Positions 1 to 63,828 of a stretch of 64,000 nucleotides of DNA are shown here, piece by piece. The first letter of the stretch is position 1. Each line of letters starts with the position of its first letter. The stretch is taken from assembly GCA_963829055.1 (NCBI GenBank), contig CAWHHI010000004.1, forward strand, positions 224,001 through 288,000. Reading direction: 5' to 3'. The translations under genes and the position numbers were made by a program. Below the pieces are notes generated by a model. That model did not search any database. It had not been told where the DNA came from and saw nothing but the letters and a program-made list of their open reading frames with translations. The DNA comes from an uncultured Gemmatimonadaceae bacterium. GTDB lineage: Bacteria > Gemmatimonadota > Gemmatimonadetes > Gemmatimonadales > Gemmatimonadaceae.

Positions 1-1229
1 CCCCGTCGTGATGAGCAGCGTGCCCTGCTTCCCGACCTCGAGCGAGCCGACCTTGTCCGCAATGCCCATCATCTCGGCGGCGTTGATCGTCACCGCCTTG
101 AGCGCCTCCTCCTCCGGTAGCCCGAACGCCACCGCGACGCCCGCGTCCCACGGCAACCGGTTGCTGTACAGCGCCCCCGACCCGCCGGCGATCGCGAACT
201 TCACCCCCGCCGCGTGCAGCTTCGCCGGCAGGCTGTAGACGGCATCGTAGCCCTCGTACTCCCTGTCCGGCGCGGCCATCGTCGACGTCAGGATCACCGG
301 GACGTTCTCCGCCTTGAGCCGACGGCGCAACGTGAATCGCGTCGGCGCCGCCACGGATCACGAGCTTCAGGCCCTCCTGCTTCGCCCACGTGATGGCGTC
401 GTTCATCTGCGCGACGCCGTCGGCTGCAACGACGACAGGGATCGCGCCGTCGAGCGCAGGAATCATCGCCGCGTATTTCACATCGGAGCGCACCGTCTGC
501 CCGGCCTTCACCGCATCGCGATACGCGCGCGCCTCGGCGAAGAAGTTCTTGAGCTCCTGCACGCGCTCGGCGTAGCTCTTGGGTGGCTGACGATTGGCGG
601 CGTTAGGTCCGCCCGGGCCACCACCACCAAAACCGCCGCCCGGACGCGCGTTAGGGTCGGGCCAGCGCACGTTGAGCGCGGCCGCGCCCTTCATCGACAT
701 CTCCTCCCACGTCCACCCCTCGAGCGACATCGCCGAGGAGAGGCCCGAGACCACGCCGACCGTCCGGCGTGCTGAACGCGACGAGTACGCCCGCCGAACG
801 CGTCGTGCCGATGTGCCGGCTCTCTGCGTTGAACGCCACCTCGGCGCGCACGTTCGGGTTGAAGTCGCCGCGCTCGGTGATGTCGTTCGACACATCGACC
901 GCGCCGATCTCGGTAATGCCCACCGTGCTGTACGCGTCGATGAGGCCCGGATAGATGTGTTTGCCCGTCAGGTCGACGACCTTCGCGGCGCGCGGCGTCT
1001 GCACATTGGCGCCGCCGATTGCCGTGATCTTGCCGTTCTCGAGCACGATCGTGCCGTTCTGGATCGTCCCCTTGGTGACGGTGTGAATCGTCGCGCCGCG
1101 CAACACGACCGGCTGTGACTGCGGCGCTACCGGCATCATCACCTGCGCGGTCGCGGCGTTAGGCGCGAATGCAGTGGCGCCGAGCAGCGCGATCCCGGCG
1201 GTGCGGGAGAGCATTTTCATGGTCGGCAT
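1..1229 (-). CDS. Secreted amidohydrolase-family protein (imidazolonepropionase-like fold); runs off the window; frameshifted near 700-780 and 300-360
   Basis: Signal peptide, then VLRGATIHTVT...GKHIYPGLIDAYS. Later frames give KFAIAGGSG...GLPEEEALKAVTINAAEMMGIADKVGSLEVGK, a typical amidohydrolase C-terminus. Confidence 0.8.
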
Positions 1230-1230
1230 C

Positions 1231-4200
1231 TCAGCGTCCTCCCCGGCCAGGCGTGCGCGCCGGACGTTCGGTTGACGGGTCGGTGTTGCCCGAGCCGCTG
1301 GCGGCGAGCACCGCCTGAATGAGCTGACTGCGCTGCCGCGCCATGTCGGCCCGCAGCGCCGCGTCCTCCTCGAGCGAGAAGTAGCGACGGCCGTCGACCC
1401 ACGTCTGCTCCGCCTTCGTGAACTGCGAGAGCGGGTTGCCGTTCCAGATCACGAAGTCGGCGTCCTTGCCCGCTTCGAGTGAGCCGACGCGGTCGTCGAT
1501 CGCGATCGCCTTGGCTGCCTGGTTCGTGACGGTGGAGAGCGCCTGAATCTCACCCACACCGGTGCGCAGCAGCTTGCCCGCCTCCCAGTTCATGCGCGTC
1601 GAGATCTCGGCGTTGTCCGAGTGGAGCGACGTCACGACACCCGCCTCCATCAGCATGCGCGCGTTGTAGTTCGTTGCGTCGTAGGCCTCCATCTTGAACG
1701 CGCCCCAGTCGCTCCACACGACCGCGGCGACGCCCGATTTCTTGAGCTCCGAGGCGATCTTGTACGCCTCGACGCCGTGCTGCAGCGTCTGCACGCGGAA
1801 GCCGAACTCCTCCGCCAGGCGCACGAGTGCGAGGAACTCGTCGGCGCGATAACCGTGCGACGACACGAGGAGCTTCTGGTCGAGGATGTCCGACCAGCGC
1901 TTCCATTCGCAGGTCGCGCCGCGGTGGGATCCCGGCTTTGGTGCGGTCGGCCTCCCAGCGCTTCCACACCGCCCGGTAGTCACGCGCGGCCATGAAATGG
2001 TCGCGAATGATTTCCTGCGTTCCCATGCGGGTGTCCGGATACCGATTCGGATTGCGCTTCGGGTTTTCGCCGAGCGCGAACTTCACCGTTCGTGGCGCGT
2101 TTGCGAGCTTCAGCTCGTCGGGGAGCGCGCCCCATCGAATCTTCACGTACACGTTCTCGCCACCGATCGGGTTGGCGGAGCCGTGTTTGATCATCGTCGT
2201 CGTTAGGCCGCCGGCGAGCTGGCGGTAGAACCAGATGTTGTTGTGCGTGAGCACGTCACCCATTTGCACTTCGGGAACGATCGCGAAGCCGCTCTCGTTC
2301 ACCGAGCTCACGCCCGAGTGCGTGTGTGGATCGATGAGGCCCGGGGTGACGTGTTTACCAGTAGCGTCGATGACCATGGCGCCGGCCGGCGCGGTAAGCC
2401 CCTTACCGACCTGCGCGACCTTGCCCGCGCGGAAGAGCACGTCGGTGTTCTCGAGGCGGCCCTGCGGTCCCTGCGTCCAGACGGTACCGTTGCGCACCAG
2501 TACGGCCGGCGGCTGCGTCGGCGGCGCGGCGCGTCCGAACTCCATCGCCGGCCGAATCGCCGGGAGCGTGAGATTCGGAACCTTCATGGCCACGGTGCCG
2601 CGCGCGGGGCCTTCGAACTGCTCGGTGCGCGTCCCGCGGTACGTGGCATCAGCGCCGTTTGGGAGCGACATCCATCCGAAGAAGTTCTCGCCCTGCGACC
2701 GAACCGGTGAGCGAGCACCCGGCCCTGATGGCCGAGCGGTTCACCGTCGAACGTCACCTCGAGGCGGCCGGTCTCCGTGATGATCCGCGCGGACGTGAGC
2801 TTGCATCGGTTTGCCGTTCGGGCGCCGAGATCGTGCCGCGGATCCGGTTGAGCGGCCCCTCGATGCGCAGGGTCGCGGGGAAGCCGTTCACATCGGCCGT
2901 CGCGATCGTCCACGTTCCGCGCGGATCGATCTGCGGCGGGCGCGTGACGCCATAACGCGTTCCCTGCACCCACACGTCTCGGACGCTGGCTTCTTCGGTG
3001 AAGAGGTTGCCGTCGGCGACCACGAGATTCGCGACCTTGCCCGCGGCGATCGTGCCGTGAGTCTTCTCGATTCCGAGCAAGGTGGCGGGCACCGTCGTCA
3101 GCGCCGCGAGCGCCTTGTCGGCAGCGAGCCCGCGTGCGACCGCGATGCGGAGGTTCGGGAGGAACTGCCCGATCGACGATAGGCCGTCCGTGGTGAGCGC
3201 GAAGGTGACTCCCGCACTCGCGAGCTGCGCAGGATTCGTCGGCGCCAGGTACCAGTGGCGGAGTGCCGCGAACGACGCATCCGAGCGCGGCTTCGGGCGT
3301 CGAGACGTCGGGTGCGTCGGGGAAGTTGAGCGGAACGATGAGCGGCTGCGTGCGACCGCGCAGCACATCGAGCAGACGATACTCCTGCCCGCTCCCGCGA
3401 AACCATGGTGTCAGTTTGTAATCGGTCGCGAGGCGGTACGCCCGCAGGTAGTCCTCCTCGCTCTCCGTCTGGAATATCACGGGCTGCCGCCCGCGCACGA
3501 CTTCGGCGAGTGCGTCGAGCGCCTCGCTGGTCTCCGGCGGGAGACCGGCGCGGCCGCCCTTCTCGTACGCGTCGCGTGCGCGGATGTACCAGTCCGCGTC
3601 CATGAAGGTCTGCTTCATCAGTGCGATGGTGCCCATCGAGGAGTTCGGGTAGACGCCGCCGAGCTGGAACGACTGTTGAAGCCGATCGCCTGTATGAGGT
3701 CTGACCTGAGCACCCGCTCACGCGCGCCGAGGTCGCCGAGGTTCACGACGGACGCCCGGCCGCGGAAGATGCCGTGTTTCGGCACGACGAGCGCGGTGCC
3801 GAAGCCGAGCGAGCGCAGCGCGGCTCGACGCGTGGTGTCGTCCTTCAGGCTCGCCGTGGTGCTGAACCACGCACGCACCTGCGGATTCCAGTGCGTCGGG
3901 CCGACATCGCCGCCCTGCGGTACCTCGCCGACGCCGAGATCTGCGTGCGCGTCGATGAAGCCGGGGTAGATGGTCTGGCCGGCGAGATTCCAAACGCGCG
4001 CGCCGGCGGGCGGCTGCACGTTCGCGCCGACGGCGGTGATGAGCCCGTCGCGGATGACGATGGTTGCGTTGGGAAGCACCTGACCGGGGCCGGTCACGAC
4101 GCGGGCGCCGACGAGCGCGTGGAAGCCTGTGCCGTTGTTGCGGAGTCCTGTGACGGGCTCGGTGCGGGAGGTCTGTTGGGCGTCGAGGGTGTTGGCGGCT

Positions 4201-4494: not shown

Positions 4495-5056
4495 ATGCCG
4501 CGGTCCCGTCCTGTCCTCACGCTCGTCCCCGCTTCCTCCGACCGCCGAACCGCCGAGCGCCTAACGGTAGCCCCGACGGCGCTGCTCGCTACGTTCGCGG
4601 CGATCGCGCTTCTCACGTTAGGCACGACCGCTGCCGAGGCGCAGGCCGCCGCCGCGACCGACACGCCGCTGCACCTGGCGGAGAGCCGCTTCGATTTCGT
4701 CGCGTCGGGCGACACGCCGCCGCCCGCGAAGCCGCTCCGCGTTCACAACGGCGGCACGGCGCGGTTCACCGACGTGCGACTGACGCGGCTCACGTACGCG
4801 GACTCGGCGCGCGGTGCCGCGTGGCTCGTCGCGCTGCCGCGTCAGTCTGCCGTCGCGCCTAACGAGCTCGCGACGGTCGGCACGCTCTGTGTCGACGCGA
4901 CCGGGCTGCCGGCCGGCACCTACCGCGCGACGGCCGCCGTCGCTGCGCGCGAGGTCCCGGAGCCGGTCGCGATCACGATCACGTCTCGTCGTGAAGGACG
5001 CCGGCGCTGGCGCGGGCCACGCGGCCGGGCGCTGCGGAACGGCCGCCACGAAGTAG
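4495..5056 (+). CDS. Hypothetical exported protein (beta-sandwich-like), frameshift near 4985
   Basis: Hydrophobic signal-like stretch ending AEAQA. GLPAGTYRATAAV...ITIT continues in another frame as LVVKDAG...ATK*. Confidence 0.45.
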
Positions 5057-5208
5057 TCCGGGCACGCGTGACGCGAGCAATCGGCGATGAATCGGACGCG
5101 CGCGCCGCCTCGGGAAGTGGCGGTCCATCGAGTACCCCTACGCGCCTAACGCCGGTCGTCTCGGCAGATTGGGCGCTCGCGATCAACTACATGACACGGA
5201 GACTGAAC

Positions 5209-5952: not shown

Positions 5953-8452
5953 CTATTCCGCCCGCAGTGCCTCCGTCGGCTGAATGCCGAGCGCCTTTCT
6001 GGTCGGCACAACGCACGCAAGCAGGCACACGCCGAGCATCAGCGCCGCATAACTGATCAGCGTGGCGAGCTGCGAGATGGACAAACCACCGGCGAGCGTA
6101 TGCATGCCCATGTCGGTATCGGGCTGATGGTTCCTCACGACGATGCTCCCGAGGCCCACCAGGAACGACCCGACCAGGATGCCGATGCTGACCTGCGTCA
6201 GCGGACGCTTGAAGATCGTCGTGACGATTCGCCGCGGCGTCGCGCCCACCGCCACGCGCACGCCGATCTCCCGCGTACGCTTCGAGACGATGAACGACAG
6301 CACCGCATAGATCCCCGCGAGCGACAGCAGCACCGCGATGCCCGTCAGGACCATCGTGATCTTTTGCCAGAGGTGAAATGAACCAGACCATCGGGTCCGC
6401 CATCCTGTCCATGCGCGTGATCTCATTCAGTCGGATGGTCGGATCCACCGACTCGGCGATCGCGCGCAGCCGCGCCGTGAGCGTCAACGGATCTCCCGAC
6501 GCGTGGATCATCATGAACGGAGAGCCCATCATCTCCGGCGTCGCCGGCTTGTAGATGCCGGCCGGCGGGCTGCGCTCGATCGGCGAGACCATGCCGAGGT
6601 CCTTCACGACACCGACGATCTCCCACCACGACGAATCGGCCCGGCCGATCTGGATCTGACGTCCGAGCGGATTCATGCCGCCCAGCACGTGTTTCACGAA
6701 TCCAAGGTCGACGATGACGTTGCGCGCGCCGGGAACGAGGTCGCCGCTGTGGAAGCCGCGTCCGGACAGGATCGGAGCGCCAAGCACGCTGAAGTAGTTC
6801 GGCTCCGCGCGCGCGATGCCCACGACCCGGAGACCCTTCGGAAGCTGTGCCGAATCCGCGAGCTGGATGCGGGCGCCGTCATGCGACGTGCCCGGTGGCT
6901 CGGTCACGAATGCCACGCCGCGCACGCCGGGCTCGCTGGCGATACGCTGTCGCAGGGTCTCGAGCATCGCGCCTTCGCGCACGCGCCACGCTTCGCGCGC
7001 CGCGCTCGTCGTGTCGAGCGGTGCGTCCGTCTCCACGTTGACGGTGAGGTATTCCGTCGGCCGGAATCCGAAGTCGTATGACTCGATCCGCGACAACTCG
7101 TTCTGCTCGAGCGCCACGATCGCGGGCAGCAGGACGGTCGCCGCGACCTGCGCGACGATGACGAACGTCCACACGCCGCTGAAGCGCAGGCCGCCGCCGG
7201 TGGTGCCCTGGCGGAGCTTCGACGAGATGCTGCGCGTCACCTTGAGCGCTGGAAGCACGCCGGCGATCACCGCGCCGAAGACCGTCAGGCCGAGCGCATA
7301 CAGCACCGTCGTCGGCGACAGCTGAGGGTCGAACCAGAACGGCAGCGTGTCGTAGTTGATCTCGAGGTAGTGCCTGGCGTACACGCGCAGCGTGATGTCC
7401 GCGGCGCCGAGTCCGATAGCGGCGGCAACTCCACCCAACACGAGCGCTTCGGCAAAGAGCTGCATCACGAGACGCCCGCGGCTCGCGCCTAACGCGCTAC
7501 GCACCGTCAGCTCCGTCTCGCGCGTGGCAGCGCGCGCGAAGAGGAGGAGCGCGACGTTGCCGCAAACCAGCACGAGCAGCGCCATGACCATGCCGTTCAT
7601 CGCAACGGTCATTGCCAGTGTGTCCGGGGACGGGTCGTCGTCGGCGACGTAGGAGATGACGCGCGGCCTGAGGTGCTCGTGCGTCTGCGCGAATTGCGTG
7701 GCCATGCGACGGCCGATCACGTCCAGCTCGGCCTGTGCCTTCTCGTACGATGCGCCGTCGGCCAGTCGGCCAAAGACGGTAATGGAGACTCCGCCGCGAG
7801 GGGTGCGATCGAGCTCGTCGACGCGCAGCGGCATCCACACCTCGTGCGCGATCGGGAAAGCGTATCCCTCATCCATCACGCCAACGACGGTGGCGAAGGA
7901 GTCGCCGATCTTGACCGACTTGCCGAGGATCGCGGGATCGCTGCCGAAGCGGTCCTTCCAGACTTCGTAGCCGATGACGGCGACGGGAGGAGCGCCGGCG
8001 CGCTCGTCGCCTGTGTTGAGCGTGCGACCCATCAGTGCCTTCGCCGACGACACCGCGAAGCCCGATGCAGTCATCTCGGCGATCTTCACCTCGCGGGTCT
8101 GGCCGCCCGGCACCACGAGGTTCCGCGCGACGTCACGGAACGCGCCGAGGTCCTTGACGGAGCGGAGCTCGCTCGCGCCAGACGAGGAACTCGTGAACCA
8201 ATCGCTTCTCGGGAACACTCTCCTTCGTGTCCCAGTTGAAGAGCTGGACGATGCGGTCGCCGTCGGGAAGAGGCAGCTTCGGGTTCACGACGAGCCCGTA
8301 CATCACGAAGGTCACCGTGCCGAACCAGAGGGCGAAGGCCATCGCGATGCCGCCGACGAGCGTGATGACCGGGTATTTGGCGAGCAGCCGGCCGCCGAGC
8401 TTCATGTCGAGGGGAAACCGCTTGCCCAGGAGAGTCGCGCGGGTAGAAGCAT
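5953..8452 (-). CDS. ADOP/MacB-FtsX family duplicated ABC permease (frameshifted; start uncertain, 8405-8452)
   Basis: LDMKLGGRLLAKYP, VCGNVALLLFARAATRETELTVRSALGASRGRLV and KRTREIGVRVAVGA...QPTEALRAE are spread over three frames. Confidence 0.85.
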
Positions 8453-8527
8453 TGACCGAGGTGTGGAGGTATGCGTGCCGTAACGCAACGTCGGCGTTAG
8501 GGTTTCCCGGCGACAGCCTCGATTCGC

Positions 8528-10362: not shown

Positions 10363-13080
10363 TCATTCCGCCCTCAGTGCCTCCGTCGGCTGCACCCGCA
10401 GTGCGCGGACGCTAGGCACGACGCAGGCGAGGGTGCAGACACCAAGCATCAGGATCGCGTAGCCACTGAGGAGCGCGATCTCGCCTAACGTCAGCCCCCG
10501 AGGCTGGGCCGCGCGGAACTGCTCCGTGTGCTGAATGCCGATCGCTGCCACAGAGATCAAGACGACACCGGCCATCACGCCCAGGGTGACCTGGGTCAGC
10601 GGGCGTCTGAAGATCGACGTGATCACTCGACGCGCGCTCGCGCCCAGTGCGACACGCACTCCGATCTCCCGTGTACGGCGAGCGACGATGTACGACAGCA
10701 CCGCGTAGATGCCGGCCAGCGAGAGCAGAAGGGCGACTCCCGTCAGGCCGATGATGATCCTCGACCACAGGCCGCAGGAGCCAGAGCAGCGGCGTCATCA
10801 CCTGGTCGACGCGCATCAGCTTCTCGACCCGGAGTGCCGCGTCCACCGCCGTCGTCAGCTCGCGGACGCGCGGCGCGAGCGACAGCGCGTCGCCGCGAGC
10901 GTGCACGATCATGTTGACGTCGCCCTGGCTTCCCGGAACGGTTGGCAGGTACAGGCCGGCCTGCCGTTGCGGCATCGCGGCGCTCGCCATGCCGAGGTCC
11001 TTCACGACGCCGACGATCTCGTACCACGGCAACTGGGCCGCGTTCGAGTCGAGCTGCGCGCTCGAGCCGATGCGCACGCGATGACCGATCGGATTCCGTC
11101 CGGACATCACGAGGTCCACGAAGGCCTGATCGACGATCACGACGCGAGCGTCCGGAGAGAGATCGGAGCTGGTGAACGCGCGACCCGCGAGCACCGGCGC
11201 CCGCAGCACGTCGAAATAGGAAGGATGGATCGATGCGGTCGCCACGACCGAGCGCACGCTTCTCCGGCAGCGACACCACTTCCACGCGCTGATAGTCGTG
11301 ATCGCCTCCCGGCAACCGGTCGACGAATGTCACGCCGGCGACGCCCGGCTCCGCTTCCATCCGGCTGCGCAGCGCCTCGAGCGAGGTGGTGATCCGCGCG
11401 CCTAACGCGGCGCGGGTCTCGGGTGTCAGCGTCTCTTCCGCCGCACCGTCGACGCCGAGGGTCACGCCAAGGTATTCATGCGTTGGAAAGCCGGCGTCGT
11501 ACGACTCGACGCGTTTACTCTCACTGCGCAGGAGCATGACGACCGCCGGCAACGCGACGGTGAGCGCGACCTGCGTGACGATGACCGCCGTCCAGACACC
11601 GCCGAAGCTCACGCCACCGCCGCCGGCGGTTCCCGCGCGGAGTCGCGTCCCGAGTCCGCGGGTGATTTTCCGCGCCGGCATTACCCCCGCCACCACCGCG
11701 CCGATCACCGCGAGCGCGAGCGCGGAGATGATGGCCTTCGGCGACAGATTGAAGTCGAACCAGAAGGGAACACTCGCGGTGTCGAACGCCATCTCGAAGG
11801 TACGGCTTACCCAAGCGGGTCAGTGCCAGCTGGGCCGTCACCAGTCCGACCACCGCCGCAGCGCCGGCGAGCACCAGCGCCTCGGCGAAGAGCTGCGTCA
11901 CGATGCGCCGGCGGCTCGCGCCCAGGGCGCTGCGGACGAGAATCTCAGTCTCCCGCGACGCGGCACGCGCGAACAGGAGCAGCGCCACGGTGCTGCACAC
12001 CACCAGCACGAGCGCGACGACGAAGAAGTAGCTCAGCGCCTTCATCGCCGTCACTTCGCCGTTGTCGACCGACAATTGCGCGTACGGGAGTACGTGCGGC
12101 TGGAGCTGCGCGTGCGTCGTCGGGTGTTCCGCGGCGAGGCGCTTGCCGAAGGCCGTCAGCTCCGCCTGCGCGTTCTCGAGGGACATTCCGCTCGCGAGGC
12201 GGCCGAAGACCTTTATGGCGGTGCCGCGCCGCGGTTCCTCGCGAGCGGCGTTCGTACGCAGCGGTAGCCACAGCTCGTGCGCCACGGGGAACGCATAGCC
12301 TTCCGGCATCACACCGACGACCGTCGCGAAGCTGTTTCCGAGCTTGACGCTGCGTCCGACGATCTGCGGATCACGATCGAAGCGATTCGTCCACACCCCG
12401 TGGCCAAGCAGCACCACGGGCGCCGCACCCGCGGCTTCGTCCGACTCGTCGAGGACGCGGCCGAGCAGCGGACGCTGAGGGGCGATGCGAAATGCGGAGG
12501 CGGTGATCTCCGCTGCCTCCTCGGGCCGCGCACCGCCGTCGGCGCCCACCAGGTTGACGCTCGCGTCGCGATACGCGCCGAGGTCCGTGATCGACCGCGC
12601 GGAGCGCCAGAGCTCGTAGTCGTACAGCACGCGATCCTCGTCCTGGAGCGTCTTCGCATCCCAGTTCTGGATCCTCACGATGCGATCGCCGTCGGGGAGC
12701 GGCAGCTTGGTGCTCGTCAGGAGGCCGACCATCTGGAAGGTGACAGCGCCGAACCAGATACCGAACGCCATCGCAAGGCCACCGATGAGCGTGAGGCCGG
12801 GATACTTGACGAGCATTCGGAAGCCCAGCTTCAGGTCGAGCGACAAGCCGCTGAACCAGGCGGTGCCGCGGCCCTCGCGGAGTGTCTCGCGATGCTGCTG
12901 CACGCCGCCGAAGGTCGCCAGTGCGCGCCGCCTCGCTTCGTCGGGATCGAGCTGCTGCTCGCGCACGAGCCGCTGCGTCTCCATCTCGATGTGGAAGCGG
13001 ATCTCGTCGTCGATCCTGGACTCGGCGGCGCGTGGCGCGAGGAGGCGCAGGCGCGCGCGGGCGGCGTGGAACCACGTCAT
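10363..13080 (-). CDS. ADOP duplicated ABC permease with N-terminal permease-prefix domain (frameshifted)
   Basis: MTWFHAARARL...IDDEIRFHIEME...ARRRALATFGG, LDLKLGFRMLVKYP and RRTREIGVRVALGA...QPTEALRAE across 4 frames. Confidence 0.88.
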
Positions 13081-13537: not shown

Positions 13538-13628
13538 GGTGCTCGGCGCCGCGAAGGCTCGGTGGGCAATACGACCGTTGCTGTGCAAACAAAGCCGCAA
13601 CGATGCTGCTGTTACCTAACGGTTCGTG

Positions 13629-19641: not shown

Positions 19642-19841
19642 CTGCCAGCTCCAATCTGATGATGTCACGCCACGATAGGCGCGACTCGATCGGGACGAGG
19701 CCGGCCTGGCGTTAGGCGGCCGGGCGTGCCAACCCGTTCCCGACGGGACGGCATCGCGAGAGGCCTCGTTGGGTTGCTGTGCTGAAAGGTCGTATGCGAG
19801 CATGACCGACGCGATGACGCACCCGGCGGGCGGCCCAAATC

Positions 19842-26148: not shown

Positions 26149-26150
26149 AA

Positions 26151-43352: not shown

Positions 43353-43409
43353 GCCTCGGGCGGCCTAACGAGAGGTCCGACGCCGCATGAGTGGCGTCGG
43401 AGACGTCTG

Positions 43410-48155: not shown

Positions 48156-48545
48156 TGCACCTGAAACCGCCGCACCGCGGATGGGGGTCATGGGATCGGC
48201 GACCGACCCGGACAGCGGCCAGCGCTGTCGGTCAGCCGCAAACATATGACGCTCAATCCTGCGACTCCGCGCTCCCCGCGTCAAGCCATCCCGGGTTGCA
48301 ACCCAATCGATGTCTGGTGGCGTAGCCGAAGCGTGATCGCTGGCGCCAGGCCGCTGCCGGACTCAGGGGCGCGCGTTGGCCGAACGGTCGCCTCGGCCGA
48401 TCGAGCCTAACGAGAAACCGCTCGGGAACATCGGACCGACGTCATTCCGGATCCCCTCGGCCACACGATCGGCGAGCGCCATGATCGTGAGGTACATGCC
48501 GCTTGAGTCCTCGCGATCGACCGTCTGAACTCGCGTGACAAGCTA

Positions 48546-51592: not shown

Positions 51593-52757
51593 CGTTCTCC
51601 GCCGTCCGCCATCCGCCATCCGCCGTCCGAGCTTCCGTGAGCGAATTACCCGCAGTACGCTCTGGCCGATGCTGTGGAAGGAATTCGTCCAGATGCGGCG
51701 GGATCGCTTCACGCTCGGGATGATGATCGGCCTGCCCGGAATTCAGCTGCTGCTGTTCGGGTTCGCGATCCGGACCGAGGTGCGGCATCTGCCCACGGTC
51801 GTGCTCGATGAGTCGCGCACGATGGAGAGCCGAGCGTTCGTCGATGCGATCAGGAACACGGGGAACTTCGACATCGTGGGTTCCGTCGGAAGCCGCGAGG
51901 ACATGCGACGCCAGATCGAGCGCGGCACGGCGCGCGCTGCCGTCATCATCCCACCCGACTACGAGGCGGACATCAAGCGGCACCGCACCGCGCAGACGCA
52001 GGTGATCGTCGACGCAGCCGATCCATTGGCGTCGTCCGCGGCCATCGCCGGCGCGACACTCGCGGGACAGGCGCGCTCGGCCGCCCTCGGCGCGCAGAAC
52101 GCGCCGCGTCAGGCACCGATCGACGTGCGGGTGCGTCCGTGGTACAACCCGGGCCTCGAGAGCTCGATCTACATCGTGCCAGGCGTCATCGGCCTGCTGC
52201 TCACGCTCACGCTGCTCATGATCACGGCCATGGCGCTCGTGCGCGAGCGTGAGCGCGGCACGCTGGAGCAGCTCATCGTGACCCCCATATCGAAGACCGG
52301 ACTGATGCTCGGCAAGGTGCTACCGTTCGCGCTCGTGGGCTACGTGCAGGTGACGGTGATCCTGCTGCTCGGTCGCTTCGTGTTCAACGTGCCCATCCGC
52401 GGCAGTCTCGGCTTGCTGTACCTCGTCACCGCACCGTTCATCGTCGCGAGCCTCGCGCTCGGCCTGTTCGTGTCGACGGTCGTGCGGACACAGGTGCAGG
52501 CGATGCAGCTCTCGTTCGTGTTCATCCTGCCGACGGTGCTGTTGTCGGGCTTCATGTTTCCGCGCGAGGCGATGCCGCCGTTCGCGCAGTGGCTCGGGGC
52601 GATCTTCCCGATCACGTACTATCTGCGGGTGTTGCGCGGGATTCTGCTGAAGGGCGTGGGCATGGACGCGTTGTGGCAGGACACGCTCGCGCTCGCCGCG
52701 TTCGCGCTGGTGCTGCTGGCGTTCAGCGTGCGGAGATTCCAGAAGAACATCGAGTAG
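51585..52757 (+). CDS. ABC-2 type permease (YbhR/YbhS-like)
   Basis: KEFVQMRRDR, WYNPGL, RERERGTLEQLIVTP, LSGFMFP. Confidence 0.92.
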   Translation: MPNVLRRPPSAIRRPSFRERITRSTLWPMLWKEFVQMRRDRFTLGMMIGLPGIQLLLFGFAIRTEVRHLPTVVLDESRTMESRAFVDAIRNTGNFDIVGSVGSREDMRRQIERGTARAAVIIPPDYEADIKRHRTAQTQVIVDAADPLASSAAIAGATLAGQARSAALGAQNAPRQAPIDVRVRPWYNPGLESSIYIVPGVIGLLLTLTLLMITAMALVRERERGTLEQLIVTPISKTGLMLGKVLPFALVGYVQVTVILLLGRFVFNVPIRGSLGLLYLVTAPFIVASLALGLFVSTVVRTQVQAMQLSFVFILPTVLLSGFMFPREAMPPFAQWLGAIFPITYYLRVLRGILLKGVGMDALWQDTLALAAFALVLLAFSVRRFQKNIE

Positions 52758-52822: not shown

Positions 52823-53338
52823 ATGCCGAACCGAAAGGCGAGCGCGGTGTGGGAAGGTGGGCTCAAGGGTGGCAAGGGTACGTTCAAGGGCAGCAGCGAC
52901 TCGATCAATGGGCAGTACTCGTTCTCGTCACGCTTCGAGGAGGGGACCGGCTCGAATCCGGAAGAGTTGATGGCTGCCGCTCACGCGGCGTGCTTCAGCA
53001 TGGCGCTGAGCGCTCAGCTGGAGGGGAACGGGACGCCACCGAAGCGTGTCGAGACCACGGCCGTGTGCACCGTCGAGAAATCCGGCCCGGGCTTCAAGAT
53101 CACGACGATGAAGCTGACCACACGCGCGACGGTCCCTAACGTGGACGCGGCGAAGTTCCAGGAGCTCGCGTCCGCGGCGGTCGAGGGATGCCCGGTCTCG
53201 CAGGCCCTGAAGGGCAATGTGAACATTGTGCTGGATGCAGCGCTGACCTGCGGCGCGTCGGACGGAGGGAGGAAGGCGCGGTCGCTACGGGGTCGCGAGC
53301 GTCAGTCGAAGGCATCGTGCGGTTCCGCCATTCGCTAG
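52823..53338 (+). CDS. osmC: OsmC-family peroxiredoxin (true stop probably near 53250)
   Basis: AVWEGGLKGGKG...YSFSSRFEEGTGSNPEELMAAAHAACFSMALS...CPVSQAL. Confidence 0.9.
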   Translation: MPNRKASAVWEGGLKGGKGTFKGSSDSINGQYSFSSRFEEGTGSNPEELMAAAHAACFSMALSAQLEGNGTPPKRVETTAVCTVEKSGPGFKITTMKLTTRATVPNVDAAKFQELASAAVEGCPVSQALKGNVNIVLDAALTCGASDGGRKARSLRGRERQSKASCGSAIR

Positions 53339-53670
53339 CCGTCCGTCCTCCGCGCCACGGCAACCCATTGAACAACAGCGTGTACCCAGCCTAACGCCAG
53401 GCCAAAGCGTGGCGTCGAGTGCGCAGCCTGCTGCGCCGCTGCCCTCGACGGTGCAAAGGCGCCGAGAGTGACGAGGACGATCGCCCAGCGCATCCAGCGC
53501 CGTCCGTGAGCTCGAGCGGGAAGGTGCGGGCGAAAAGGACGTGACAGAATCGGCGCGATTGAAAAGGGCAGGGAGCTGATCGACGGTAAATACAACACGG
53601 CGCATCCGACGCGGGACAACCGGCCATGCACGTCACATCAGACTCACTCACGCCCGGCCGGCGCTCGGCG

Positions 53671-56210: not shown

Positions 56211-58535
56211 ATGATCCGTAACTCTCGCGTCGCGATTACCGGATTGCTGCTCGTCGTGCTCGTGGCCGCCGTGTCCTGGGCGATCGCGACGCGCGGCTCG
56301 CGCCGCGTGCCAATGACGCCCGAAGTGGCGAGAGAGATGCGGGCGGGAAGCGAGTTCGCGTCGTTGCTCGAGCGCTCCACCGCCTCAATGCCTGCCGAAT
56401 CTATTTCGGTTCCGAACGCGGTGGCGCTGGGCTACCTCGAGCGGCTGCGCCTGGGGTTGAGCAGCCCATTCCGGCTGATCGACTACGCATTGGCTGACCG
56501 GATGCTGCCCGACTCGCTTCGTCATCTCGTCGCGTACGCGGTGCTGCAACGCACGCTCGACGGTGATACCTACCACGCTCCGCCCGCGGCGCTGTCGCTG
56601 GCCGGCGCGGCGATGCCCCAACTCCCGCCCGATCTCGCGGCGCGACACGTCGCGCTGATCGACAGCGTGATCGGCAAGGCGTCAGATCCGCGTGGGGGTG
56701 AGCTCACCGTCCGTGAGGCGTACCGTCTCGCGGGTGCCGCGGGTTCCATCGGGCGGCGCGGTCCGTGGCTCGGCACCCAGGTGGCGGCGCTCGCACGTGA
56801 TCGGGCGTTGGCCCGTACGGACGTGGTCGCTTTGCTCGCGACCGCGCGTCGCAATCGCGTCGACCCACTCGGGCTGATCCCTGTCTGGCGTCTCGAGCGG
56901 CGCTTCGAGGTCGAGCGTCCACTGATGAGCGCACTCCGCCCCGATGTCGAGCGCGACGCACTGGGCCATGTTCGGTCGCTCGTTCGCGAGCTGGACTCGC
57001 TGGCCGCCCGCGAGCGCCGCGCGGATGCAGACTCGACGCACCCGCGCTACGCGGTGACGTCGACGCTTTCCGCCGAGGCGGCGCGCCGGCTGGCGTCGGT
57101 CGCGGCAGTGCGGGCAGCGCCACCGCAAGCGCCGATCACGGTGGCCGTTACGAGCACCGTTCGCCCATCGCGGCTCACCGCGGGCGTGCTGTCCCCCGCG
57201 GATGAGCGGACGAAGGACGCGCTCACCCGGTTCGCCGACCGTGCCGTGAACGAGGAGTCGCTCGCAGGAGAGTACTCGCTGTTTCTGGCGCACGATTCGG
57301 TGCACGTGGCGCAGCCGTCGCTCGCCGTGTTGTGGGCCGCTGTCTCAATGCGTGCCTATTCCCAGGAGCGCGTCTGGTTCCCTGGCGACGGCGGACCATC
57401 TGTCCCCGATCTCAAGGACCGGTTCGGTCTGGCCGCGGTGAGCTTCGACGCCGACGTGCCAACGACGTGGCGCCCGTACTATCTCCGCATGCTCGGCTCG
57501 ACATTGTCGGACCTGCAGCGCGTCCTTCCGGCGTTCGGCGTTCGCGGTCTGGGCGTGCATTTCGGTGAGAGCCCGATGCGCGACGCGGCGCTCGCGATGC
57601 ACGATCCAGCGACGCGAACGATCTTCCTGCCGGTCGGGACCAGCGCCGGCGTGATCGCGCACGAGCTTGCGCACGACCTCGATTGGCAGACGGCGCGAAC
57701 GCGCTACGGTTTACGCGGTACGTACAGCACGGATCGCGCGGTTCGCCAGTATCGCGATCGCCTGGCGGCATCGATGCTCGAGCTCAGCGACGCCGGTCCC
57801 GGCGAGAGCTCGTTAGGCACGGACGGTGCCCGCGTGGTGCCGAGCGCCCGGCCGACGGAAGTGTTCGCGCGGAACGTCGATTGGTTCGTGAGTGCGGTGC
57901 TGGCGCGAGACGGGCGGATGAACGGGTATCTGTCCGCGGTGCAGGACGGCGTGCTCACGGGTTATGGCGCGGTGGCGGCTCCGGAGGTTGCGCGCGATGG
58001 CGCGCAGGCCATGATCCGCGCGCTCGATGAGATGACGCTCGTGGCGCCGGCGACGCGCGCCTGGTTCCTCGAGACGCATGGTCGCGCCCGGGCGATCCCG
58101 CTGCCTGAGCTCACGCGGCGCGTGCTCGAAGTGCCGCTCTCCTCGGCCGATCGACGCCTGGCGTCGGGCCCGCGCACGGCCGCGGACGTGGTCGCACCGT
58201 CGGGCGATGCGAGTGCGCGTGCACTCATCGCGTTAGGTGGTGGATGTCGCGGCGCGGTCGCGGGCGATCGGCTCGCGGACGAGCGGGCCCGTGTGCTCGT
58301 GGAGGCGGCGGACGCGCGCGCCCGAGGCCTGCTGGCGCGGCGCGCCCATTACGCGGCGACGTCCGAGCGCGCCCCATGGCAGGCGCGGGCGCTGTTAGGC
58401 AATGCGTGGACGCCGATGTACGCGGATCATGCGCAAACGGAGCTGCGCGATATCATCCTGCGTCGCGCGGTCCTGGCCGCGGCGCCGCGCGGTTCTGCGG
58501 CGGTGGTCGCCGCGGCGCCGCTGGGATGTCGATGA
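56211..58535 (+). CDS. Hypothetical membrane-anchored protein with a HExxH zincin motif
   Basis: N-terminal TM helix; VIAHELAHDLD and downstream RPTEVFAR. Confidence 0.65.
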   Translation: MIRNSRVAITGLLLVVLVAAVSWAIATRGSRRVPMTPEVAREMRAGSEFASLLERSTASMPAESISVPNAVALGYLERLRLGLSSPFRLIDYALADRMLPDSLRHLVAYAVLQRTLDGDTYHAPPAALSLAGAAMPQLPPDLAARHVALIDSVIGKASDPRGGELTVREAYRLAGAAGSIGRRGPWLGTQVAALARDRALARTDVVALLATARRNRVDPLGLIPVWRLERRFEVERPLMSALRPDVERDALGHVRSLVRELDSLAARERRADADSTHPRYAVTSTLSAEAARRLASVAAVRAAPPQAPITVAVTSTVRPSRLTAGVLSPADERTKDALTRFADRAVNEESLAGEYSLFLAHDSVHVAQPSLAVLWAAVSMRAYSQERVWFPGDGGPSVPDLKDRFGLAAVSFDADVPTTWRPYYLRMLGSTLSDLQRVLPAFGVRGLGVHFGESPMRDAALAMHDPATRTIFLPVGTSAGVIAHELAHDLDWQTARTRYGLRGTYSTDRAVRQYRDRLAASMLELSDAGPGESSLGTDGARVVPSARPTEVFARNVDWFVSAVLARDGRMNGYLSAVQDGVLTGYGAVAAPEVARDGAQAMIRALDEMTLVAPATRAWFLETHGRARAIPLPELTRRVLEVPLSSADRRLASGPRTAADVVAPSGDASARALIALGGGCRGAVAGDRLADERARVLVEAADARARGLLARRAHYAATSERAPWQARALLGNAWTPMYADHAQTELRDIILRRAVLAAAPRGSAAVVAAAPLGCR

Positions 58536-58977: not shown

Positions 58978-60081
58978 CTAGGTCGGTGCCTCGACTTTGC
59001 TAGGCTCACCCAATTCCGGCAGGTCCGTTCGCTTTACGACCAGCGTCCTCGTCGGGTAGGCGAATTGGATTTTCTCGGCCGCGAACTGGCGGAGGATCGT
59101 TAGGTTGATTGCCTGCTGCGCATTGACGTACGAGAGATAGTCCGCCGTCAACACGAAGTAGACCGTTTCGAAGTTGAGCGTCGAATCGCCGTAGCTGATG
59201 AAATGCGAGCGGTCGAAGCGGACCTGTTGCTGAGACTGTACTGCCTCTCGAATCATCGTAGGAATGCGCGCGACGGTGTCGGGCGGCGTGTCGTAGCTCA
59301 CGCCGATCATGAACACGATTCGCCGTTCCTGCATCCGCTTGAAGTTGCGGAGGCGGCTTCGCAGCAGGTCGGCGTTCGAGAATATCAGGAGCTCTCCGTT
59401 CAGGCTCCGGACTCGCGTCGTCTTGAGTCCCACGTTCTCGACCGTTCCCGTGAACGTATCGACGCCGATCGTATCGCCGACGACGAATGGCTTGTCGAGC
59501 ACGATCGCGAGCGCCGCGAACAGATCGCCGAGCACGTTCTGCACCGCGAGCGCGATCGCGATACCACCAACGCCGAGTCCCGTGATGAGCGCCGTGACGT
59601 CGTAGCCGAGTCGATTGAGTCCCACGAGCGAGAGCATGATCCAGAGGATCGCGCGCGCGACAAAGCTGAACGCGGCGACCGTCGTGCGGCTCGCGATGTC
59701 CGACTCGGCCTTCCGCTCGGCGTAGTTGCGGAACCAGAACGTAATGAGCCCATTGCCCCAGATCGCGATCTGCAGGATGAGCGCGATGGTGCCTAACACG
59801 CGCCCGACGGCGCGCGTTCGTTCCGGGAGGTCGAGGAACAGCATGCCGCTCGCGGCGGCGGCAGTGACGATGAAGAAGTACCGCGTGCGTCGCAGCAGAT
59901 CGACGATCGCATCGTCCGCTGTCGTCGCCGTGCGCTCGGCCATCTTCGCCAGTCGTCGCGAGATTATGGTGCGGGCGAGGAAGAGCGCTGTTCCCACGAC
60001 GGCGAAAACGATGCCGGCGACGGTCCACGCCTGCAGCGAGTTGTGGTAGAACCGCCACTCCAGGAAGTTCGATGGCTGCAT
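58978..60081 (-). CDS. mscS: Small-conductance mechanosensitive channel (MscS family)
   Basis: LITGLGVGGIAIALAVQNVLGDLFA...DKPFVVGD...GLKTTRVRSLNGE...FAYPTR. Confidence 0.93.
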   Translation of the reverse strand: MQPSNFLEWRFYHNSLQAWTVAGIVFAVVGTALFLARTIISRRLAKMAERTATTADDAIVDLLRRTRYFFIVTAAAASGMLFLDLPERTRAVGRVLGTIALILQIAIWGNGLITFWFRNYAERKAESDIASRTTVAAFSFVARAILWIMLSLVGLNRLGYDVTALITGLGVGGIAIALAVQNVLGDLFAALAIVLDKPFVVGDTIGVDTFTGTVENVGLKTTRVRSLNGELLIFSNADLLRSRLRNFKRMQERRIVFMIGVSYDTPPDTVARIPTMIREAVQSQQQVRFDRSHFISYGDSTLNFETVYFVLTADYLSYVNAQQAINLTILRQFAAEKIQFAYPTRTLVVKRTDLPELGEPSKVEAPT

Positions 60082-61993: not shown

Positions 61994-61998
61994 GTGCC

Positions 61999-63828
61999 TC
62001 ACTTCATTTCCTCGATGACGGCCTTCAACTCCGCGGGCATCGGCGCGATCGGCACGCGCTCCAGCTGCATCGAGCCGTCGGCCGCCTTCCTGAGCGTGAT
62101 GTTGAACGTTCCGAACTGCGCATCCTTGTCCGGATAGTCCTCGCGGAAATGACCGCCGCGACTTTCCCGTCGCTCGATCGCCGCGCGCGCGACCGCTTCG
62201 GAGATGGTGAGCAGGTTGCGTAGATCGAGCGCCGTGTGCCACCCGGGGTTGTACTCGCGATTCCCCGGCACTGTGACACGCGCCGCCTGCTCCTCCATCT
62301 CCTTCACCTGCTCGAGCGCTCGCATCATCTCCGGCTCGCGGCGCACGATGCCGACGCCGTCCTGCATGATGCCCTGCAGCTTGTGCTGAATCTGATACGG
62401 TCCGTCCCCTGCGTTTCCATTGCCTGCGGCCGCTCGCTCGAACGGGGCGAGCGCGAAGCGCGCGGCGTCATCGACAGCGGCCTTGTCCACTTTCGCCGCG
62501 CCACGTTCCTGGGCGAACTTCGCCGCGTACTCGCCGGCGCGCTTGCCGAAGACCACGAGATCCGACAGTGAGTTGCCGCCGAGCCGGTTCGCGCCGTGCA
62601 GTCCAGCGGCACACTCGCCCGCGGCGAACAGCCCCGGGACTGAAGACATCTGCGAGTCGCCGTCGACGCGAATGCCGCCCATGACGTAGTGCGTGGTCGG
62701 GCCGACTTCCATCGGCGTCGTGGTGATGTCGATGTCCGCCAGCTGCTTGAACTGGTGATACATGCTCGGCAGCTTCTTCTTGATGTGCTCCGGCGCGTTA
62801 GGCATCCGGGCCTTGATCCACGAGATGTCGAGGAAGACGCCGCCGTGCGGGCTGCCGCGCCCTTCCTTCACCTCGCGCATGATGCACCGCGCGACGTGAT
62901 CTCGCGTGAGCAGCTCGGGCGGGCGACGCGCGTTCTTGTCGCCCTGCACGTAGCGCCAGCCCTCTTCCTCGTTGTCCGCCGTCTGCGACTTGTAGTTGTC
63001 GGGAATGTCGTCGAACATGAAACGACGGCCATTCTTGTTCGTGAGGACCCCGCCTTCGCCGCGCACGCCTTCCGTCACGAGAATGCCCTTCACGCTCGGC
63101 GGCCAGACCATGCCCGTGGGATGGAACTGCACGAACTCCATGTCCTGCAGGACGGCGCCCGCGTGATACGCGAGCGAATGACCGTCGGCCGTGTACTCCC
63201 AGCTGTTGCTGGTGATGCTGTAGGCGCGACCGATGCCGCCGGTCGCGAGCACGACCGCCTTCGCGCGGAAGACGCGGAAGCGTCCGCGCTCACGATCGTA
63301 CGCGAACGCGCCGCTCACGCGTTCGCCGTCCTTGAACAACGTGACGACGGTGGACTCCATGTGCACATCGATGCCGCGATGGATGGCGTGATCCTGTAGC
63401 GTGCGGATCATCTCCAGTCCCGTTCTGTCGCCGACGTGCGCGAGTCGCGGATAACGATGGCCACCGAAGTTCCGCTGCAGGATGCGTCCGTCGGGCGTGC
63501 GATCGAACAGCGCGCCCCACGCCTCGAGCTCGCGCACGCGATCCGCCGCTTCCTTCGCGTGCAGCTCGGCCATCCGCCAGTTGTTGACGTACTGACCGCC
63601 ACGCATGGTGTCGGCGAAGTGGACGCGCCAGTTGTCGCGATCGTCCACGTTGCCGAGTGACGCGGCCATGCCGCCCTCGGCCATGACGGTGTGCGCTTTG
63701 CCGAGCAGCGACTTGCACACGAGCCCGACCTTCACACCGCCTTCTGCGGCGGCGATGGCGGCGCGCAGTCCTGCCCCGCCGGCGCCGATGACAAGAACAT
63801 CGTGATCTATGGATTCGTAGTCAGGCAT
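61999..63828 (-). CDS. sdhA: Succinate dehydrogenase/fumarate reductase flavoprotein subunit (Sdh1/Rv0248c type)
   Basis: VIGAGGAGLRAA...CKSLLGKAHTVMAEGG (FAD His), QFHPTG, EGVRGEGG, HYVMGG, HGANRLGGNSL, RRESRGGH. Confidence 0.96.
   Translation of the reverse strand: MPDYESIDHDVLVIGAGGAGLRAAIAAAEGGVKVGLVCKSLLGKAHTVMAEGGMAASLGNVDDRDNWRVHFADTMRGGQYVNNWRMAELHAKEAADRVRELEAWGALFDRTPDGRILQRNFGGHRYPRLAHVGDRTGLEMIRTLQDHAIHRGIDVHMESTVVTLFKDGERVSGAFAYDRERGRFRVFRAKAVVLATGGIGRAYSITSNSWEYTADGHSLAYHAGAVLQDMEFVQFHPTGMVWPPSVKGILVTEGVRGEGGVLTNKNGRRFMFDDIPDNYKSQTADNEEEGWRYVQGDKNARRPPELLTRDHVARCIMREVKEGRGSPHGGVFLDISWIKARMPNAPEHIKKKLPSMYHQFKQLADIDITTTPMEVGPTTHYVMGGIRVDGDSQMSSVPGLFAAGECAAGLHGANRLGGNSLSDLVVFGKRAGEYAAKFAQERGAAKVDKAAVDDAARFALAPFERAAAGNGNAGDGPYQIQHKLQGIMQDGVGIVRREPEMMRALEQVKEMEEQAARVTVPGNREYNPGWHTALDLRNLLTISEAVARAAIERRESRGGHFREDYPDKDAQFGTFNITLRKAADGSMQLERVPIAPMPAELKAVIEEMK

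Follow-up and report, generated by a model that had tools for sequence, protein, structure and literature searches.

A hyper-abundant, non-palindromic octamer in some Gemmatimonadales genomes coincides with the R box of integron attC sites

Here we describe a DNA word that recurs throughout a 64,000-nucleotide stretch (the window; G000:C4:224001-288000, contig CAWHHI010000004.1) of the genome of an uncultured soil bacterium of the Gemmatimonadaceae (G000, assembly GCA_963829055.1; 7,784,024 bp in 20 contigs, 86% complete). The word is the octamer GCCTAACG/CGTTAGGC, non-palindromic in that GCCTAACG differs from its own reverse complement, and G000 carries 2457 copies in the first orientation and 2547 in the second, 5004 together. 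Markov models of orders 1-3 predict 50-130 copies per orientation and 100-260 for both, which places the octamer at 20-50 times expectation and makes it the most over-represented 8-mer of the genome under every order. We show below that the word is a real recognition signal at the DNA level, kept against codon and protein preferences, and that, by sequence comparison, it consists of the R'' box (RYYYAAC) found in integron attC sites of the order plus one base, G. As a tentative explanation we favour a tag of kin DNA akin to the uptake sequences of naturally transformable bacteria.

An earlier note on the window had reported 27 copies of the heptamer CCTAACG and 32 of CGTTAGG, and our count reproduces exactly these 59 sites, 27 on the plus and 32 on the minus strand, at the coordinates it gave (Table 1). 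Its chance expectation of about 7 proved too generous, as 100 dinucleotide-preserving shuffles of the window (GC 0.64-0.69) yield a mean of 2.92 CCTAACG (sd 1.74, maximum 8). Genome-wide, the heptamer occurs 3154 times on the plus and 3237 times on the minus strand. Its enrichment therefore stands, while the length assigned to the unit does not: 41 of the 59 window heptamers extend to the full octamer and, among the 7103 CCTAAC cores of G000, G occupies position -1 in 79% (A in 12%) and position +6 in 90%. Only weak preferences are seen at -2 and +7 and no information further out, so the copies are single sites rather than pieces of a longer repeat, in agreement with the unrelated flanks claimed before; conserved flanks of the repetitive extragenic palindrome (REP) or miniature inverted-repeat transposable element (MITE) type are absent outside -2 to +7 in the same 7103 cores. 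One-off variants at octamer positions 2 and 7 are scarce, with 9-58 copies where 35-131 are expected, and those with A or C at position 1, A at 3, G at 5 or A at 8 are tolerated and in modest excess. Thus ACCTAACG (827 copies), CCCTAACG (428), GCATAACG (583) and GCCTAACA (435) are all in excess, as is GCCTGACG (1763 copies against 736 expected). A similar excess of sibling words, which the earlier note had named as counting against a specific signal, was not found: none of the one-off variants counted in G000 is comparably enriched.

The imprint of the word on coding sequence is pronounced. Crude gene calling by a codon log-odds score gave 5322 genes spanning 5.30 Mb of G000, a set that misses many true genes because of frameshifts in the assembly. 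Inside these genes we count 2967 octamers, against 122-161 in ten shuffles of synonymous codons within each gene, a null that keeps the protein and the codon counts of each gene. Both orientations are represented (1375 sense, 1592 antisense), and the claim that every frame is used holds for the four stop-free frames, the remaining two containing TAA or TAG. Copies in called genes number 1163 for frame xCG TTA GGC ([ATSP]-L-G), 826 for xxG CCT AAC Gxx (P-N), 549 for xGC CTA ACG ([RGSC]-L-T) and 429 for xxC GTT AGG Cxx (V-R). Of the 2644 TTA codons, 1163 (44%) lie within the octamer, which encodes 19-25% of [ATSP]LG, 10-42% of [RGSC]LT and 26% of PN peptides, where codon usage predicts 0.4-1% (7% for PN). 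The peptides themselves are just mildly enriched (observed/expected 1.38 for PN; 2520 ALG versus 1626 of the reversed GLA), indicating that most sites are synonymous choices and some entail an amino-acid change, a double imprint likewise described for uptake sequences (PMC2817400). Octamer density is nearly equal with and without codon periodicity (ratio about 1.1) and flat along genes.

Alignment with related species shows how copies come and go. Syntenic DNA of six species of the genus was aligned to the window at 75-77% DNA identity; at 63 aligned G000 sites, counted as site-species pairs that are not independent, the other species carries the exact word in 23 and a word one letter off in 15, against a background identity of 13-16% for 8-mers of the same alignment. 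Sites are thus conserved above background between species, yet they also turn over. Copies arise by point substitution at single sites, often through a synonymous change to a rare codon, and gains are visible as CTC/CTG to CTA and CCA/CCG to CCT. The sites that the earlier note placed in sdhA (44259, 44996 and 45851) and in a Walker A motif (50905, GLLGPNGSGKTT) are real: that at 44996, where G000 has CTA and all six aligned species have CTC or CTG, is a synonymous gain via a rare codon, and that at 50905 is kept in four species, the same proline being CCA in G001 and CCG in G009. Selection or drive at the DNA level, as proposed before, is therefore supported both by the codon-preserving null and by synonymous gains in orthologues.

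The word is not an assembly artefact, a concern raised at the outset, since six other species of the genus, further genera and named metagenome-assembled genome records all carry it. In addition, Logan contigs from runs of four studies cover positions 44000-52000 of the window at 95-99% likeness and, among 40 differences listed (with 206 further), one touches a motif: contigs of runs X1, X2 and X5 carry A>G at 44264, which makes the octamer at 44259 polymorphic. The species recurs in many soil metagenomes: of 24 listed runs, all available as assembled contigs, 20, from 16 studies, contain the window in whole or in part.

Along the genome, octamers show no strand skew with replication direction as judged against GC skew in 50-kb bins of G000 (plus/minus counts of 919/975 at positive and 1382/1385 at negative skew; GC skew follows gene orientation in this genome, rho 0.46), which bears out the earlier argument against polar motifs such as Chi or the FtsK-orienting polar sequences (KOPS). 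Neighbouring copies are about 50% direct, 25% convergent and 25% divergent at every distance. Their spacing departs from Poisson expectation and is more even than random, gaps below 100 bp occurring at 0.16-0.26 and gaps of 100-200 bp at 0.49 of the expected number, and gaps of 500-1500 bp at 1.27. Such depletion of close pairs is not expected from a purely mutational bias, and it parallels the even spacing of uptake sequences (PMC1939737). Compositionally atypical 10-kb windows (GC below 0.64 or above 0.70) hold 2.1-3.7 octamers, versus 5.7-7.1 elsewhere. Finally, in replicon samples of the complete genome G299 the word is found on all four replicons, at 0.60 per kb (5.31 Mb), 0.76 (1.11 Mb), 0.77 (1.04 Mb) and 0.85 (21 kb).

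The sdhA-like gene, 80% identical to its best named match, assigns the window to Gemmatimonadaceae. The word is limited to a patchy set of Gemmatimonadales lineages. In a first survey of 31 genomes, six other species of the genus of G000 have 2501-5112 octamers each and G010 has 605, most relatives having 6-50; G014, from another genus of the family, holds 6360 in 5.1 Mb. A survey of the phylum (401 genomes of at least 80% completeness) finds more than 1000 copies in eight genomes (G000, G235, G292, G396, G299, G318, G159 and G206) and 400-1000 in nine (G114, G124, G188, G287, G293, G344, G167, G213 and G358), the remainder mostly having fewer than 100. These tallies, together with that for the phylum of G415 below, take in the unpublished genomes G013, G078, G117, G198, G441, G466 and G564, all word-poor; none of our specific claims depends on them. 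G206, G167, G213 and G358 are members of one genus of a second family, and G288, placed in the genus of the word-rich G235, G292 and G396, has 66 copies. A further genome, G418, which holds the named Gemmatimonadales locus L030, has 1396. In samples of 67-100 kb the octamer is the top or near-top word of the intermediate genomes G114, G318 and G206, and no hyper-abundant alternative word appears in equally sized samples of the word-poor G288, G008, G088, G123 and G294; with the same octamer in the intermediates and no other word in the word-poor genomes, no dialects were found. An apparent word of G288 turned out to be a tandem heptamer repeat.

A quick tree of a single gene, sdhA (79 rows, support by the Shimodaira-Hasegawa-like approximate likelihood ratio test, SH-aLRT), gives the same picture. 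Word-bearing loci fall in one 17-row clade as two pairs, G000 with L001 and L030 with L040 (labelled Gemmatirosa sp., with 2 copies of the word in 4.9 kb), and each pair has word-free sisters, L013 and L015 for the former, L031 (Roseisolibacter sp.) and L037 for the latter, hence the patchy distribution. A 31-row clade with Gemmatimonas has a single octamer, in L018, over its 31 loci. On the same tree, sdhA of records labelled Vicinamibacterales or Acidobacteriota (L002-L005, L008, L009 and L021) nests in a Gemmatimonadaceae clade, which could reflect gene transfer or mislabelled bins. A search of the plasmid database PLSDB with locus L040 returned distant housekeeping matches alone. In the phylum of G415, genome-wide symmetric enrichment of the octamer was found in none of the 401 genomes surveyed, the highest count being 151/148 in G473. 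Several genomes of that phylum have strongly one-strand counts (6/168 in G582, 100/5 in G784; also G481, G686, G710 and G453), which probably reflect sizeable arrays of integron cassettes sharing this R'' box.

This box is where the word meets a known system. Integron recombination sites have the consensus RYYYAAC for the inverse core and GTTRRRY for the core (PMC3053210), which GCCTAAC and GTTAGGC, respectively, fit. In G021, a word-poor genome of another family, four contigs carry about 41 of the 65 octamers as arrays on one strand: 26 of 27 sites on one strand and about 600 bp apart in the first 24 kb of C95, 6 of 6 on C43, 7 of 7 on C80 and 2 on C70. At all 12 examinable sites of C43 and C80 the octamer opens an imperfect palindrome of 95-125 nt that ends in GTTAGGC (9 sites) or GTTAGAC (3), and the boxes are paired in 11 of the 12 in DNA folds. 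Array and palindrome anatomy together identify these as attC sites in a cassette array. A scan of the arrays against Rfam, which holds no attC model, gave tRNA as its sole match. G000 encodes an integron integrase of its own (C20:208041-208958; 265.7 bits against a curated cut-off of 265). Of 12 heptamer sites in the 10 kb on its 3' side, 11 have the same orientation, and two, at C20:205101 and 207188, fold into attC-like hairpins that end in CGTTAGGC. Same-strand runs on the other side of intI (C20:209.8-218.2 kb) gave no attC fold and are located in coding-like sequence.

The locus has further features of note. An inverted repeat, GTTAGGCGGC...GCCGCCTAAC, lies 70-90 nt past the 3' end of G000 intI (C20:207951-207977), on the same side as the cassette-like sites, and in G007 and G016 a core-site word is found about 90-100 nt past the intI 3' end. 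This layout resembles that of integrons of the inverted-integrase type.

The copies scattered over the genome are not themselves attC sites. A CTAACG partner lies 40-150 nt upstream of 79 of the 5004 octamers, versus 72 in a downstream control, so that the paired core is at control level and about 1-2% of copies have attC geometry; same-strand runs of at least nine octamers number 12 in G000, near chance. Whereas attC sites are hairpins of 57-141 nt in one-strand arrays by intI, about 98% of copies of the word are lone double-stranded sites in ordinary genes. What the two share is the octamer itself, as the first 8 nt of the G021 attC sites and the last 8 nt of the attC-like sites of G000. We know of no integron that spreads its core site genome-wide. 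Nor does the presence or type of intI track the word: at E<=1e-40 the gene is found in 33 of 42 chosen genomes, including the word-poor G288, G007, G008, G009, G011, G016, G088, G123 and G241, and no match at that threshold is found in the word-rich G002, G004 and G396. Integrase sequences, usable at 11 of 13 loci, likewise fail to sort into word-rich and word-poor groups.

Genes that might encode a reader were sought among DNA methyltransferases, competence genes and pilins, and neither the one recognisable methyltransferase nor the two pilin-like genes profiled show a distribution that follows the word. No match to the DNA methyltransferase families PF02384 (N6_Mtase), PF01555 (N6_N4_Mtase) or PF00145 (C5 methylase) is found in the 86% of the genome that G000 represents, and 20 candidates with an xPP[YFW] motif IV are rRNA or protein methyltransferases or unrelated proteins. 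The sole recognisable DNA methyltransferase of G000 is Eco57I/Type IIG-like (G000:C8:73872-76800); its gene lies in three frames in G000 (L144, G000:C8:73862-77248) and is intact in six sister species. With the N-terminal 332 aa as query, it is detected in 41 of 42 Gemmatimonadales genomes whatever their word count, an unusual stability for a restriction-like gene, and no target-recognition block was found that differs between the word-rich G235 and G001 and the word-poor G288. Methylation as the driver was rejected on these grounds, the only recognisable DNA methyltransferase being family-wide and without divergence of its specificity region. In G001 a Type IIG/DrmMI-like N6-adenine methyltransferase of about 1060 aa adjoins an SNF2/DrmD-like helicase (L151:2141-6999), and the helicase is the methyltransferase's neighbour in all three relatives examined (G001, G235 and G288). 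Competence-type genes of G000 comprise ComEC, DprA, a ComEA-like helix-hairpin-helix fragment, two secretins and seven pilin-like genes. Homologues of two stand-alone pilin-like proteins, profiled over 42 genomes, occur whether the word is abundant or scarce. On the minus strand of C12:395001-406000 (L208), open reading frames (ORFs) of 538 and 388 aa, four pilin-like genes and more ORFs lie upstream of a secretin, an operon that looks like a type II secretion system by ORF sizes and order alone.

Overall, the excess over the codon-preserving null, the depletion of near-cognates, the conservation between species, the avoidance of close pairs and the occurrence on all replicons argue that a protein reads the whole word on double-stranded DNA, and that selection or biased transmission acts with diminishing returns per segment. 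As the exact match of the octamer to the attC R box is unlikely to have arisen by chance, the reader would be either a recombinase of the integron type at work on isolated sites or else a receptor for uptake or transfer that became tuned to the box. We rank first, with a confidence that stays short of even, an uptake-sequence-like tag of kin DNA whose predicted reader has attC R-box specificity. In such a system this protein would read single double-stranded copies, and uptake or transfer, followed by recombination, would favour DNA fragments that bear one copy or more. Biased transmission would spread new copies, a single copy sufficing for each fragment. If the receptor is tuned to the attC box, integron cassettes from kin would be imported preferentially as well. 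Such a receptor is made somewhat more plausible by chromosomal integrons, which recruit cassettes from the single-stranded DNA of natural transformation (PMC12614218).

The testable sequence-level hallmarks of uptake sequences are present except dialects, scarcity in recently acquired DNA being suggested by the lower density in windows of outlying GC. Like the uptake signal sequences (USS) of Pasteurellaceae and the DNA uptake sequences (DUS) of Neisseriaceae, the octamer is a short non-palindromic word present at about 0.6-1 per kb on both strands without polarity; its copies are single sites made by point substitution inside genes, with a frame bias and enrichment of the encoded peptides, and they are evenly spaced, perhaps scarce in foreign DNA, and accompanied by a modest excess of some one-off variants. 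Unlike USS and DUS, it is patchy over genera and two or three families, comes without dialects or a receptor that we could find, and is identical to the R box of integron attC sites, a feature without parallel in either; its over-representation is also below that of the 9-10-mers of USS and DUS (183 and 392; PMC1939737, Table 1). Among the systems suggested in the earlier note the uptake sequence thus fits best, while a modification target has gained no support.

Several points weigh against a tag for uptake. No member of the Gemmatimonadota is known to be naturally competent, and the competence genes found here are near-universal. The two pilin-like candidates for a receptor show no phyletic link to the word in the 42 genomes. 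Related Neisseriaceae lineages carry DUS dialects (PMC3630211), in contrast to their absence from the intermediate and the five word-poor genomes sampled here. Copies interfere over about 200 bp, less than the usual length of transforming fragments, and the full density of the 21-kb replicon fits any process on resident DNA. Finally, its identity with the R box could equally well mean that the word is read inside the cell, for instance by the integrase IntI.

An explanation of this last kind ranks next, together with a HIP1-like one, and we regard either as rather unlikely. The copies would be R-box half-sites for IntI or a related tyrosine recombinase in the cell, forming a genome-wide net of secondary or attG-like sites that would persist since IntI binding, nicking or the insertion of cassettes at them is useful or self-propagating. 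Its appeal lies in the fit of the word to RYYYAAC/GTTRRRY (PMC3053210), which by rough estimate a random 8-mer would match over the 7-bp core with a probability below 1%, in its place as the R'' box of the G021 attC sites and the R' end of the attC-like hairpins by G000 intI, and in the activity of IntI on double-stranded genomic attG and secondary sites (10.1101/2022.09.11.507474, 10.1101/2022.04.29.490043); moreover, one word across genera and families without dialects suits a reader as conserved as IntI. It has to contend, however, with an intI gene whose occurrence and sequence are unrelated to the word, with the control-level frequency of CTAACG partners, and with orthologue alignments that show substitutions and no insertion scars. 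In addition, attG needs GWT alone rather than a full R box, and a cell with thousands of perfect, randomly oriented secondary sites should be put at risk if IntI acted on them (10.1101/2022.04.29.490043).

The other explanation of this rank, an intracellular signal for modification, strand discrimination in repair or nucleoid organisation, involves no DNA transfer and makes the integron likeness secondary. Its model is the cyanobacterial highly iterated palindrome HIP1 (GCGATCGC), an octamer over-represented 15-300 times and conserved within and between ORFs, of unsettled function (PMC5861425). Like HIP1, the word is a hyper-abundant octamer that runs through coding sequence, is conserved between genomes and was lost in some lineages, and neither has an agreed function. 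The presence of the word on every replicon of G299 is in keeping with such a role, as are its adenines and the Type IIG-like N6-adenine methyltransferase beside an SNF2 helicase, an enzyme conserved across the family. HIP1, however, is palindromic and tied to the orphan methyltransferases DmtA and DmtC (PMC4390886), whereas the present word is non-palindromic and is tracked by no methyltransferase: the three families searched have no match in the 86%-complete G000, none of the 20 motif-IV candidates is a DNA methyltransferase, and the one enzyme found occurs whatever the word count, with no diverging recognition block.

A Chi-like self marker, by which the word would tame RecBCD/AddAB or a defence system and word-free DNA would be degraded, is very unlikely. 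Chi and KOPS or the architecture imparting sequences (AIMS) are likewise over-represented in resident DNA, and the depletion of the word in compositionally atypical DNA and its occurrence on plasmid-sized replicons would suit such a marker. Chi and KOPS are nonetheless strongly skewed with replication where the word has zero polarity against GC skew, though this skew follows gene orientation, and a self marker offers no reason for the attC-box match. Ranked last, a functionless by-product of context-specific mutation or repair bias, or an assembly artefact, can be set aside with near certainty: single-base indel errors do exist in G000, but the word occurs in many independent assemblies, near-cognate depletion at several positions would need several substitution types, close pairs are depleted and sites are conserved above background.

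Searches of the open-access literature and bioRxiv returned no match for either octamer as a whole word. The matches listed for the heptamer and hexamer concern telomere repeats or unrelated matters; those for GTTAGGC/GCCTAAC concern integrons or unrelated subjects, none reporting genome-wide abundance by title and start of abstract; and no paper among the matches listed combines 'DNA uptake sequence' with 'Gemmatimonad'. This agrees with the view of the earlier note, whose interpretation as a whole is partly supported, that the motif has no known description; the octamer length, the identity with the attC R box and the patchy Gemmatimonadales range go beyond it. Circular permutation of the hexamer core GTTAGG/CCTAAC gives TTAGGG, the telomere repeat of vertebrates, a coincidence in our view.

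Other features of these genomes were encountered along the way. G000 has a second abundant element, with core TGTCATTCCGAGCG(R)AGCG...GAGTCGAGGAATC in about 650-900 copies (the 12-mer GCTCGGAATGAC occurs 669 times), which looks like a palindromic repeat of the REP/MITE type. Short tandem heptamer repeats differ in unit between genomes: GGGAATC and GGGGACT in G000, GCAGAAA in G288 (L085) and, as word counts suggest, GACGTTR in G294 (L177-L181) and AGTCTTG in G206 (L096-L100), those of G288 alone having been viewed in sequence. Single-base indel disagreements with G000 at window positions 45941, 48293 and 49015, where contigs of at least two runs lack the base, together with the split Type IIG-like gene, indicate that the assembly seems to carry frequent errors of this kind. 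Contigs of several runs join across 46015-47845 with other letters between, and ORF 46028-47668 seems to be a strain-variable insertion or replacement. Outside the window, 49.6 kb of C6 (G000:C6:5440-55037, GC 0.699) hold no octamer; the genes of this desert include chorismate synthase, trp genes, DAHP synthase and FtsK, many of them fragmented, and it is possibly a chimeric join or foreign DNA in the assembly.

Table 1. Copies of the word in the window, with their state in aligned species of the genus or their sequence context
Position	Strand	Form	Aligned species or context
601..607	-	heptamer CGTTAGG, next base T	
649..655	-	heptamer CGTTAGG, next base G	
1157..1164	-	octamer CGTTAGGC	
2201..2208	-	octamer CGTTAGGC	
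4559..4566	+	octamer GCCTAACG	
4616..4623	-	octamer CGTTAGGC	
4857..4864	+	octamer GCCTAACG	
5144..5151	+	octamer GCCTAACG	
7487..7494	+	octamer GCCTAACG	
8495..8501	-	heptamer CGTTAGG, next base G	
10483..10490	+	octamer GCCTAACG	
11400..11407	+	octamer GCCTAACG	
13615..13621	+	heptamer CCTAACG, variant ACCTAACG, the most frequent one tolerated genome-wide	
16882..16889	-	octamer CGTTAGGC	absent in G004, sole aligned species
17592..17598	-	heptamer CGTTAGG, next base G	
17737..17744	+	octamer GCCTAACG	
17991..17998	-	octamer CGTTAGGC	
18204..18211	-	octamer CGTTAGGC	
19057..19064	+	octamer GCCTAACG	
19710..19717	-	octamer CGTTAGGC	
20122..20128	-	heptamer CGTTAGG, next base T	
20804..20811	-	octamer CGTTAGGC	
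21927..21933	+	heptamer CCTAACG, variant TCCTAACG	
22998..23005	-	octamer CGTTAGGC	
23043..23049	+	heptamer CCTAACG, variant ACCTAACG	
23343..23350	+	octamer GCCTAACG	
26012..26019	-	octamer CGTTAGGC	kept in G001 and G002, different in G004
26972..26978	-	heptamer CGTTAGG, next base T	
27240..27247	+	octamer GCCTAACG	kept in G001 and G002
28443..28450	-	octamer CGTTAGGC	absent in G002
28691..28698	+	octamer GCCTAACG	absent in G002
30116..30122	-	heptamer CGTTAGG, next base T	
32699..32706	-	octamer CGTTAGGC	CGCTCGGG or CACTCGGC in three aligned species
33527..33534	+	octamer GCCTAACG	kept in 3/3 aligned species
35872..35879	-	octamer CGTTAGGC	kept in G004, one-off in G001 and G002
36514..36521	-	octamer CGTTAGGC	kept in 3/3 aligned species
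38664..38670	-	heptamer CGTTAGG, next base A	
38986..38993	+	octamer GCCTAACG	ACCTAACG in G001, CCCTAACG in G002
39504..39510	-	heptamer CGTTAGG, next base G	
39579..39585	-	heptamer CGTTAGG, next base G	
40105..40112	+	octamer GCCTAACG	kept in G002, ACCTAACG in G001
43363..43370	+	octamer GCCTAACG	ACCTAACG in G004
43704..43710	+	heptamer CCTAACG, variant TCCTAACG	
44077..44084	-	octamer CGTTAGGC	absent in three aligned species
44259..44266	+	octamer GCCTAACG	spans start of sdhA-like ORF (ATG CCT AAC G)
44996..45003	+	octamer	in sdhA, frame xGC CTA ACG; Leu CTC/CTG in 6/6 aligned species
45851..45858	+	octamer	in sdhA (Leu CTA); kept in 4/6 aligned species, CTG/CTC in two
48405..48412	+	octamer GCCTAACG	
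49771..49778	-	octamer CGTTAGGC	kept in G002
50443..50449	-	heptamer CGTTAGG, next base T	
50905..50912	+	octamer	in Walker A loop of ABC-type ATPase (GLLGPNGSGKTT; Pro CCT, Asn AAC)
51016..51023	-	octamer CGTTAGGC	absent in 5/5 aligned species
51587..51594	+	octamer GCCTAACG	GCCTGACG or ACCTGACG in two species
53135..53141	+	heptamer CCTAACG, variant CCCTAACG	
53389..53396	+	octamer GCCTAACG	
57811..57818	-	octamer CGTTAGGC	kept in G002, one-off in G004 and G003
58231..58237	-	heptamer CGTTAGG, next base T	
59098..59104	-	heptamer CGTTAGG, next base T	
62796..62803	-	octamer CGTTAGGC	kept in G001, one-off in G004

Few genomic words reach such abundance, and every known one (USS, DUS, Chi and HIP1) has led to a machine that reads DNA. 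In strength the present word equals HIP1, and its effect on codon use and on protein sequence is plain to see. It occurs in a soil phylum that has received little study, and it matches the recombination box of integrons, the principal gene-capture system of bacteria. As sister lineages with and without the word exist, its reader protein should be findable by phylogenetic profiling, and the completeness of G299, with its four replicons, hints that a carrier may be available in culture for direct tests. The word also offers a clear-cut compositional criterion by which to bin these genomes and to recognise foreign DNA in them. A more specific form of the uptake explanation, which we advance as a doubtful but consequential possibility, is that some Gemmatimonadales have a DNA import or exchange receptor for the attC R box that evolved to harvest cassettes from kin, and that the ensuing drive wrote the box genome-wide. 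If true, the box would have been written into the genome at a density of about one per 1.5 kb, with a fifth of all peptides that can accommodate it rewritten, and the word would represent a third independent family of uptake sequences, the first outside Proteobacteria. It would also be the first case in which an uptake signal is functionally linked to a system of site-specific recombination.

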